A stretch of DNA of 24,637 nucleotides from an uncultured archaeon (GCA_964525635.1 CAZGJX010000067.1:1-24637); one strand, 5' to 3'. Shown: positions 17,045 to 21,852, counted from the first letter of the stretch. Notes: generated by a model from the sequence alone, not told the origin. Program-made: numbers and translations.

Positions 17045-19525
17045 TTAAATTCCATAAAATCCCTTTAAAATTACGGCTACTAGGTTAGTTAAGAAATTTG
17101 CATCATCTATGGCTCCCGTTTTTAATTGAGTCATTAATTCTTTAACAGCAATCCTCTCATTCTCGAAAATATTCTTTCCAAATTCAGAACTAACTATGTG
17201 TTTGATTAATTTTTCTAAATCTTTAAATTGAAATTCCTTAGATAAGATAGCAACGAGATCTCCGTCTCTTTTTCTAGTTTTATCATCCTTTTCTTCAATT
17301 TTAGTGATTATTTCTTCTACAGCTAATTTTTTTACTTTATATAATTCCTTATGTTTTGAATGAAAGTCTTTCACATATTCATATATCTGTTCAGCGCCTT
17401 TTTCGAAATTTTTTACATCGTAATCAATACCAGGATCCTTAGAAAGCCCTATAGATCCCATATCTTCCCAGGTAACATCCTCTCCCCTCATGGGTAAGAT
17501 TGGGACCTGGTATTTAGCAGAAAGCTCGAGCTCATGAGCACAATCTGGTGAATTAAAAACCGATTTTTTGGTACCTAAAAAGAATACTATATCGCTAATG
17601 GGGACATTATCATCCATAAATTTATCTATATTACCAGTCAAGTCTTGTTCGCAGAGGAGTACATCGTAAACTTCTGGTTTTTTCTCTAAATATTCCCCTA
17701 ATTTGGGTAATAAATATGGTTCGTAGTCAATTACAGCGTGTGAAATAAATATAGCCATACTGGCTCGCTGTTTAAAGTAATCCTGGAGTGTATCTAATCC
17801 CCTATTAACGTACTCCATTTCTTCAGGTGAGAGGGGATTACCGTCTAATTCTAACCGCTCAAGTGTTTCAATAGGCCATAAGTGATATGGTAGCATTTCG
17901 AGATTATTTTTTTGAAGGTTTAAAGTCACGAGATTCATCTCTTCCATGCTTTTAGGCAAACTTGAAATAGTATTCTCCCTTAAATCTAAATATTTGAGAT
18001 TTTTACACTGAAAAATTGATTCGGGTAATGTTTTTAAAGGATTTCTCCATATATCCAATTTCTCGAGGTTTTCTAATTTACCAAAACTATCTGGTAATTT
18101 TTCTAGTTCACAATTTTTAATCTCCAACTTCTTTAACGAGGTTAAGTTGCAAAATTCCTCCGGTAATTCTTTTATTGGATTCTTATCTAAAGTCAGCTTT
18201 TCTAAGCTCTTTAACTCTCCAAACTCCTTGGGGAGGGTAATTAACTGGTTATTACTCAAATCCAAATCCTTTAAACTCTCTAAATTTCCAAAACTAGATG
18301 GTAATGATTTAAGATTTCCATACTGCCTTTTCCCTTCCAATTGAGCATATCCCAAGTATAAGGTTTTTAACTTTTTCATTTTCCCAAACGATTGTGGAAG
18401 TGTTTCTAATTGGAGTCCTTCAAGATTCATACTTTCCACATTCACTAATCCTTCAAATGTATCCGGTAGACTCGTCAGCTGGCTGGCCCTAATAGTAAAA
18501 TCTCTTAAGGATGCTAATTCTCCAATAGAGTCGGGTAAGGTGGTAAATTTATTTCTACTTACATCAATACCAACAAGGTTTTTTAAATTTCCGATTGATT
18601 TTGGAATTTCAGTGATTTGATTATTCTGTATGTATAAAAACCTAAGTTTAGATAAGTTACCGATCGATTCAGGAAGCATGGACAGTTTATTGTTGTTTAA
18701 ATAAAGGAAATCTAAATTTTTCATTTCTGAAATTGAATCAGGGAATGATTCTAACTGTAGATAGTCAGCTCTTAATATTTCGAGGTTAGTTAGGTTTCCG
18801 ATTGACATTGGCAAATTCTTTATTGGATTTTCTGATATAAGAAGCCTTTTAAGAGACTTTAAATTTCCTAAGGTTTCTGGTAATTGGTTAATATCATTTT
18901 TATTTAAGTTCAAGATTTCAAGAGCAGATAAATCTGTAACATCCTTAGGAAGATCTGTTAAATTGTTATCACTCAGATCTAATTCTTTTAAATTCTTACA
19001 ATTAGATAATTCGGGTAAAATATTTATCCTGTTTCCTTGAAGGTCTAATTTTATGATATTTTCTAATTTTGAAAAAGAATCGGGTACTTTTGTGATTTTA
19101 TTGGCATCCGCCCCAAAATTTTCAAGATGAGTAAGTTTATTAATCCAATCAGGTATTTCTCTTAGTTCATTAACTCTGATAGATAAATTCTTTAAGGAAA
19201 TACAATTAGAAAGGTCTGGGATTTTAGATAATGTATTTTGGGCTACATTTAGGGTCTCAAGTTGCGTTAATTCTCCAATTGAATCAGGAAGTGATTCAAG
19301 CTTATTATTATTAACCATAAGAGTATTCAGATTTTTTAAGTTTCCAATATTATTGGGTAATTCAGAAAGATTTAATCTGCTCAACCAAATTTTATTCACA
19401 CTATTTTGGCTTTCATCCAGAGCAAACAAGTCTTTTTTCCAGTTAGAGCCTATGATCCTTTCAAATTCTCTAAGAACTTCAACTTCTTCAGAAGGAATAT
19501 CGAAATTCATATATTTTTCACTCAT
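17045..19525 (-). CDS. LRR-TIR protein (about 23 LRRs) with an intact TIR catalytic glutamate and a C-terminal helical extension
   Basis: Start re-assigned to ATG 19525 (MSEKYMNF), which has AGGAGGT upstream and removes the overlap with the upstream gene. LxxLxLxxNxLxxLPxxIGxL repeats. TIR beta-A AIFISHA, beta-C SDIVFFLGT and alpha-C SPDCAHEL (Glu codon at 17531-17533). No TM or NB-ARC domain. Confidence 0.9.
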   Translation of the reverse strand: MSEKYMNFDIPSEEVEVLREFERIIGSNWKKDLFALDESQNSVNKIWLSRLNLSELPNNIGNLKNLNTLMVNNNKLESLPDSIGELTQLETLNVAQNTLSKIPDLSNCISLKNLSIRVNELREIPDWINKLTHLENFGADANKITKVPDSFSKLENIIKLDLQGNRINILPELSNCKNLKELDLSDNNLTDLPKDVTDLSALEILNLNKNDINQLPETLGNLKSLKRLLISENPIKNLPMSIGNLTNLEILRADYLQLESFPDSISEMKNLDFLYLNNNKLSMLPESIGNLSKLRFLYIQNNQITEIPKSIGNLKNLVGIDVSRNKFTTLPDSIGELASLRDFTIRASQLTSLPDTFEGLVNVESMNLEGLQLETLPQSFGKMKKLKTLYLGYAQLEGKRQYGNLKSLPSSFGNLESLKDLDLSNNQLITLPKEFGELKSLEKLTLDKNPIKELPEEFCNLTSLKKLEIKNCELEKLPDSFGKLENLEKLDIWRNPLKTLPESIFQCKNLKYLDLRENTISSLPKSMEEMNLVTLNLQKNNLEMLPYHLWPIETLERLELDGNPLSPEEMEYVNRGLDTLQDYFKQRASMAIFISHAVIDYEPYLLPKLGEYLEKKPEVYDVLLCEQDLTGNIDKFMDDNVPISDIVFFLGTKKSVFNSPDCAHELELSAKYQVPILPMRGEDVTWEDMGSIGLSKDPGIDYDVKNFEKGAEQIYEYVKDFHSKHKELYKVKKLAVEEIITKIEEKDDKTRKRDGDLVAILSKEFQFKDLEKLIKHIVSSEFGKNIFENERIAVKELMTQLKTGAIDDANFLTNLVAVILKGFYGI

Positions 19526-21852: not shown

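Follow-up and report, generated by a model that had tools for sequence, protein, structure and literature searches.

Enzymatic TIR domains form a composite, head-to-tail active site, in which the BB loop and the Glu of one domain stand against the DE surface of the next, and the DE loop or surface of this neighbor also contributes to NAD+ binding. AbTir, SPARTA TIR-APAZ, TIR-STING, and SARM1 resemble the two archaeal proteins described here, A and B, in the TIR fold, the BB loop, the αC Glu, and (as proposed below for A and B) a two-domain site. However, they are homomeric, carry both surfaces in each protomer, and sense through Argonaute, STING, or ARM, not through leucine-rich repeats (LRRs). 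Toll-like receptors (TLRs) combine an N-terminal LRR with a C-terminal TIR and form TLR1/TLR2-type heterodimers of paralogues, and their TIRs are scaffolds without NADase activity. They differ from A and B, which have no transmembrane (TM) helix or signal peptide, by the TM helix between LRR and TIR. Roco proteins have a Roc-COR tandem after the LRRs, which is absent from A and B. Like A and B, the Thoeris genes ThsB1/ThsB2 with ThsA represent prokaryotic operons that contain multiple TIR genes, but ThsB has no LRR, the A/B cassette has no ThsA-type effector, and PADLOC gave no match for A, B, or their TIRs.

Paired plant immune receptors are the only proteins for which a split-TIR design has been put forward to date, and the two models built on them give the dead TIR opposite roles, completing the active site in one and blocking it in the other (PMC13732033, PMC11298796). 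In the model for CHS3-CSA1, a proposed dimer of heterodimers and the closest proposed working mode to that of A and B, the active sites come from CSA1 and the BB loop of the sensor is dispensable (PMC11298796). Here too, the pair is linked, and one TIR has the Glu and the BB loop while its partner lacks the Glu. CHS3 and CSA1, however, are NB-ARC NLRs that carry the TIR at the N-terminus, meet at an AE (Ser-His) interface, and are encoded head-to-head, whereas A and B have no NB-ARC, a C-terminal TIR, a coupled operon, and a candidate executor visibly without its own DE-loop motif. RRS1/RPS4 shares with A/B a TIR without the Glu in the sensor (in A, the candidate sensor), a short BB loop, and an extra domain integrated in the same protein (PMC13732033). 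It differs in that RPS4 is modeled to activate via RPS4-RPS4 contacts, NB-ARC is needed, and the integrated domain is a WRKY. A 2026 paper presents itself as the first to demonstrate a heteromeric TIR protein with NADase activity.

The window analyzed here is an entire 24.6-kb contig (C67) of a 4.45-Mb genome. The host of genes A and B is a member of Promethearchaeota with a Lokiarchaeia-type genome, and the orthologous loci found in Promethearchaeota bear out the Asgard origin proposed in an earlier, sequence-only reading of this DNA. The pair stands apart from the plant paired TIR-NLRs, as it has no NB-ARC, and from the TLR, Roco, and Thoeris systems. A literature search, which mostly did not cover subscription papers, found no description of Asgard LRR-TIR pairs; neither did the literature searched contain a prokaryotic system with this paired architecture, as the sequence-only reading had supposed. 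The conserved two-gene system is real and apparently undescribed. It is small and soluble, its unpaired relatives with both surfaces intact serve as controls, and the sequence makes an opposite prediction for each surface. If true, the mechanism proposed below would place LRR-gated TIR signaling and a division of labor between sensor and executor in archaeal relatives of eukaryotes.

Results

A and B are translationally coupled LRR-TIR paralogues

A and B are translationally coupled, soluble LRR-TIR paralogues (Table 1). As had been read from the sequence, they lie on the same strand with a gap of 2 nt between the stop codon of A and the ATG of B, and a strong Shine-Dalgarno sequence is located within the end of A. 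Orthologous pairs also carry a GGAGG-like motif, and their stop and start codons abut or overlap. The longest open reading frame of B begins at 19609; the start at 19525 was chosen on the basis of the Shine-Dalgarno position and the orthologues. Contigs from three other salt-marsh runs carry most of the window sequence, nearly without differences, and this recurrence shows that it is not an assembly error. Promoter and terminator scans remained at chance level.

In both proteins, the C-terminal TIR directly follows the LRR C-cap. Neither has a TM helix (peak 19-residue hydropathy 1.27 in A and 1.09 in B) or a signal peptide, and Pfam recognized only LRR families in them, with no NB-ARC, NACHT, Roc, or COR, in line with what had been noted earlier. 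In contrast, the statement that A aligns along the whole length of B was wrong: A has about 10 to 11 LRRs against about 22 in B, and its insert of about 245 aa had been overlooked.

Table 1. Positions of the features of genes A and B in the window, and of a neighboring gene on contigs of genus g11
Feature	Position	Strand	Remarks
Gene A, 774 aa	19528..21852	-	Split LRR N-cap with helical insert, ~10-11 LRRs, C-cap, pseudo-TIR (candidate tail donor), helical C-terminus
A-specific helical insert in LRR N-cap	21013..21750	-	~Residues 35-280 (~245 aa)
Two ~93-aa repeats of the A insert	~21358-21594 and ~21067-21312	-	27% identical
A LRR solenoid and C-cap	20173..20991	-	Variability within the pair peaks at the concave-face positions
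A pseudo-TIR	19801..20169	-	βA motif lost; BB loop/αB 11 aa shorter
A Val626	19975-19977	-	At the catalytic Glu column (sequence alignment)
A DE-loop motif LSRELGHEF	19864..19890	-	Arg657 at 19882-19884
A C-terminal helical bundle	19531..19800	-	Homologous to the bundle of B and of many family members
A stop codon	19528-19530	-	
Shine-Dalgarno AGGAGGT	19534..19540	-	Within the 3' end of A; 8 nt upstream of the B ATG
Gene B, 826 aa	17045..19525	-	N-cap, ~22 LRRs, C-cap, TIR, helical C-terminus; ATG at 19525
B LRR solenoid (~22 repeats) and C-cap	17786..19408	-	
B TIR domain	17357..17761	-	TIR_2-like fold; catalytic-type, candidate head donor; between C-cap and helical C-terminus
B BB loop/αB motif	17615..17653	-	Gly631 at 17633-17635; invariant in B orthologues
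B αC Glu665	17531..17533	-	Aligned to the catalytic Glu of TIR-1/SARM1
B degenerate DE loop	17420..17446	-	Lys696 replaces the family Arg; varies among orthologues
B C-terminal helical bundle	17048..17356	-	
Nicotinamidase-like isochorismatase gene, g11	L049:4862-5551, L050:4348-5037, L051:9338-10027, L175:2677-3366		

B carries a TIR fold with a catalytic-type head

Pfam called no TIR in A or B, and a search against PDB sequences likewise missed both, so the fold was shown through structure. An AlphaFold2 model of the TIR domain of B (pLDDT 72.7) gave AbTir (7uxu) as its top Foldseek match, with an E value of 1.1e-3 that is weak alone. In VIA, the nine best rows for this model all belonged to the TIR superfamily (Z 14.1-12.1, the best with an rmsd of 2.9 over 135 residues), and the atlas assigned the domain to TIR_2 (0.92). 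The best structural match of B is PDB entry 4c6t (RRS1/RPS4), at an identity of 16% that is no proof of kinship. Pfam TIR_2 is matched by 58 of the 66 family members, and for the TIR-like domain of A, alignment with the family spans 128 columns at a probability of 99.9. The TIR fold claimed earlier for the C-terminal domains is borne out by the matches of the B model and by the alignment of A. As modeled, the B domain folds as a TIR, a flavodoxin-like fold of five strands, with an intact BB loop and a catalytic-type Glu. The Asp and Gly of the BB loop are kept along with the αC Glu, and the IFISHA and SPDCAHEL motifs singled out in the sequence-only reading are indeed present. The Glu of the family aligns with the catalytic Glu of TIR-1 (a weak match, E 0.36) and is invariant in the 66-member alignment.

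In 2'/3'-cADPR-producing, AbTir-type TIRs, an aromatic residue four positions before the Glu is linked to ADPR cyclization. B has no aromatic residue there but Asp, and the Trp segment of TIR-1 corresponds to a gap in the family profile. As B lacks this residue, a cyclic product is less likely, and hydrolysis of NAD+ to ADP-ribose would be the likelier reaction. Thus, from the earlier suggestion that the active TIR depletes NAD+ or makes a cyclic-ADPR signal, it is the second part that has lost ground.

A has lost the head surface and B the tail surface

The columns of A and B were compared with those of 151 other Glu-bearing family TIRs, where βA, the BB loop, and the Glu were defined as the head, and the DE loop and αE as the tail. 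A has lost the βA Phe/Ser, the BB loop, and the αC Cys and Glu, all of which B retains. B has lost the Arg, the Glu, and neighboring residues of the LSRELG motif, all of which A retains in every orthologue. The DE-loop Arg of the family is found in 17/17 A-type against 0/18 B-type proteins, and the Glu and BB motif in 0/17 against 18/18. The Val at the Glu position of A and its βB-βC segment, shorter by 11 aa, had been recognized correctly beforehand. In the AlphaFold2 model of B, the LSRELG motif is the loop between αD and βE, on the side that faces the BB loop of a neighboring domain in composite TIR sites. Unpaired family members keep both surfaces, and their DE-loop motif is identical to that of A, which has 97% mean identity among orthologues.

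Over the same 17 loci, mean identity in A was 0.62 for the head and 0.97 for the DE loop, compared with 0.85 and 0.67 in B, and the pattern held in a diverse subset. Within genus g11, the dN/dS values of head and tail were 0.098 and 0.078 for A, and 0.085 and 0.214 for B. The part played by the DE-loop Arg in this family is suggested by its position only; no sequence alignment to the numbered residues of AbTir or SPARTA reached it. A possible likeness to SPARTA Arg114 was not used as evidence. B is a long branch and differs at buried positions too; its loss of the Arg may hence reflect general drift or the co-evolution of a new B-B surface.

The two genes are gained or lost as a unit

Among the 400 genomes surveyed in the phylum, the TIR family turned up in 68, every one within the class of the window, which argues for convergence and not for ancestry of TLRs or TNLs. 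Its members are mostly single LRR-TIR genes, four more of them in the own genome, and they are also found behind membrane anchors. A-type genes are present in 15 of the 161 genomes of the class (four genera, two families). In all 15, a B-type gene lies directly downstream and co-directional, in several neighborhoods, and the same linkage was seen on five further contigs. The pair of catalytic-type and pseudo-TIR is therefore conserved and linked, as the synteny search proposed with the sequence-only reading now demonstrates. Close congeners of the own genome gave no match to A. In g11, the pair is flanked by a WD40 gene on one side and a hexapeptide-repeat gene on the other; in genomes G106 and G143, these two flanking genes are direct neighbors and the pair is absent. 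This empty site in relatives shows that the two genes are a unit gained or lost.

A module of WD40 and isochorismatase-like genes came into question as the effector, but it is no obligate part of the system, as several pair loci lack it and it also occurs where the pair is absent. Its two genes are always adjacent to each other (own genome C54:12947-18877; L008:1891-5194; L012:209-3453). It flanks A and B in g11 and L012, lies beside an unpaired LRR-TIR in the own genus, and also occurs with no TIR gene nearby. In three g11 genomes, the nicotinamidase-like isochorismatase gene of Table 1 comes right after B, and nadA lies two genes past the WD40 module, an NAD-metabolism neighborhood within this one genus. 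Genome G071 has one A between two B-type genes, of which the second (L007:2842-4071) has an early TAG end and is divergent from A. Contig L161, titled Ignavibacteria bacterium, has the pair and its neighbors as in the archaeal genome G052 and is probably a misbinned contig rather than a transfer.

A is the likelier sensor

The insert of A is all-helical and divides the N-cap, and in genus g6 its repeat is present as a single copy. It is restricted to A-type proteins (15/400 genomes), and its database matches are LRR proteins (25/25), nearly all of A length. Pfam, PDB sequences, and the atlas gave no usable match to it, and no host protein was matched. The dN/dS of the LRR concave face was 0.49 in A against 0.29 in B, both below 1. 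Positive selection on the LRR faces was not found, as all dN/dS values were below 1 with synonymous sites near saturation. The unique insert and the more variable concave face lend some support to A as the candidate sensor of the pair. Of the earlier idea that the pseudo-TIR partner senses or inhibits, the sensing role thus stands in part. Restraint of an executor by the pseudo-TIR does not stand as worded, as B itself lacks the DE-loop motif that A and the unpaired members keep.

Loss of the tail mostly goes with a head-degenerate neighbor

The split-site idea leads to a prediction that we tested: where a head-intact TIR has lost the tail motif, a head-degenerate TIR that keeps it should lie next door. 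The surroundings of about 120 loci were read, some of them hand-picked, and both the threshold for an intact head and the rule for calling the tail in the insertion clade were chosen by hand. Where the context was readable, a degenerate neighbor was present for 28 of 30 head-intact TIRs that had lost the tail and for none of 62 that had kept it. One clade, the B clade, accounts for 18 of these 28 partnered rows. The other 10 pairs are outside the A/B clade and vary in gene order and orientation, and one clade among them carries an insertion in the DE loop. In several of these pairs, the degenerate partner has kept the Glu and lost the BB loop. L070 and L084 are exceptions, with neither a tail motif nor a neighbor. 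Furthermore, some head-degenerate TIRs on short contigs have no visible partner, and the tandem pairs L052-L055 have both surfaces intact.

A membrane-anchored non-LRR pair, L071, was predicted ahead of look-up. Its overlapping genes (L071:63-4564) encode a TSP3-repeat TM-TIR with a degenerate BB loop and then an LVIVD-repeat TM-TIR with the head intact and the tail lost, a TLR-like, non-LRR version of the split. In the natural fusions P0007, P0063, and P0113, a head-intact and a head-degenerate TIR occur in one protein. Parsimony counts five changes. A single origin of all partnered TIRs was, however, not rejected (AU p=0.171), so the context counts are not independent events, and there were too few pairs for a test of independent pairs. 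We offer only tentatively, and consider doubtful, the wider proposal that obligate head- and tail-donor gene pairs arose in Lokiarchaeia several times over, each time independently, from a homomeric TIR NADase. If so, these would be the first prokaryotic heteromeric TIR enzymes, in LRR, membrane-anchored, and fused forms, and would include a soluble LRR-TIR immune receptor pair convergent on plant paired NLRs, although it has no NB-ARC domain.

Discussion

The reading that we prefer, with a probability of roughly 0.55, is that A and B together make up one subfunctionalized TIR NADase receptor, each contributing a half, with B as the head and A as the tail of a split site. Since B has lost the DE-loop motif that is kept in A and in the unpaired members, a role of A in completing the site accounts for the data better than one in merely blocking it. 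Judged from the residues retained, each TIR has just one of the site's two surfaces left, so the two probably work only as a pair. The co-translated proteins would form a soluble heteromer. A ligand would bind to the LRRs, more likely to the variable concave face or the insert of A, and bring the head of B (BB loop, Glu) onto the DE surface of A. One site would be completed per A:B pair, neither protein alone being able to form it, and the completed site would hydrolyze NAD+, probably to linear ADP-ribose. With no homo-filament extension by either protein, the result would be an AND gate and a capped assembly.

Next in standing, though unlikely, is a reading in which A is an inhibitory cap or sensor: its conserved tail would mask the BB loop of B at rest, and ligand would free a B-B site. 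A is without the Glu and the BB loop exactly like the plant sensor TIRs and has an extra integrated domain, and an inhibitor that mimics a tail would likewise conserve its DE loop. For RRS1/RPS4, moreover, AlphaFold3 models favor homomeric executor contacts with NAD+, and the preferred model takes the heteromeric BE contact as the resting state (PMC13732033). However, a B-B site needs the own tail of B, and this tail (dN/dS 0.214, DE loop identity 0.67) is the least constrained part of the B TIR. Loss of the tail also recurs in other partnered TIRs, some of them without the αD Trp too, and B standing alone was not found among loci with readable context.

We consider it quite improbable that the pair is a non-enzymatic adaptor unit, similar to MAL/MyD88 or TRAM/TRIF, in which A and B would assemble with each other or recruit other TIRs, their conserved surfaces being docking sites. 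Scaffold TIRs score as high as enzymes in the fold search, the own genome has several other family TIRs that an adaptor could recruit, and fusions to membrane sensors as well as signaling genes as neighbors are seen in the family. The invariance of the Glu that aligns with the catalytic residue of TIR-1, and the retention of the BB loop Gly and Asp, nevertheless argue for an enzyme. Still less weight goes to a reading in which the contact between A and B is made chiefly by the C-terminal helical bundles or the LRRs, while the DE-loop motif of A serves a third partner, such as an unpaired family TIR or an effector. Both proteins do have the helical tail, but these tails are the least conserved of their C-terminal parts (identity 0.33-0.54), and no obligate third gene or effector travels with the pair. 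That A is a decaying duplicate with a function unconnected to B, a thought invited by frequent duplication in the family and by the C68 copy with an in-frame stop in the own genome, is largely refuted: A is intact and conserved in all orthologues with its own invariant residues, is always coupled to B, and has a dN/dS of about 0.1, and its pseudo-TIR is under purifying selection.

With A and B read as the two halves of one receptor, an antiviral defense role would be plausible and is somewhat favored over general signaling by their patchy presence and by the empty site in relatives. The window contains no defense genes. Here, the pair is surrounded by genes for a histidine kinase, HTH proteins, and a small GTPase, and in g11 by NAD-related genes.

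Other features of the window and of related loci

Several relatives depart from the usual LRR-TIR form. Two short LRR proteins of about 293 aa with a fully degenerate TIR head (L152:349-1230, L153:3039-3926) have no visible partner, and both are near contig ends. P0006 consists of three tandem TIRs without an LRR, and at L179:17734-19500 a small-GTPase-like gene runs into an LRR-TIR. In the own genome, the unpaired LRR-TIR at C68:508-2001 has an in-frame TAA in TIR helix αA; the orthologous frames in G001 and G003 have no such stop, so the gene either became a pseudogene recently or contains an error in its sequence.

Within the window, a divergent gene for a VUPS-sensor histidine kinase (22098-23633) shares a 245-bp intergenic region with gene A. 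No other genome showed this kinase next to the pair; one relative has the flanking kinase gene, near a contig end. The 1-kb gap behind B contains a 247-bp stretch (~16440-16690) that shares 79% identity with contig C187 and a short AT-rich one (~16930-17040) with further copies on other contigs; these repeats are possibly the remnant of a small mobile element. Other genes of the window encode a Ras/Roc-like small GTPase fused to a winged HTH (411-1604), a 1508-aa dockerin/TSP3 protein (8381-12907), and a double-HTH membrane protein of 755 aa that belongs to a multi-copy family (13191-15458).
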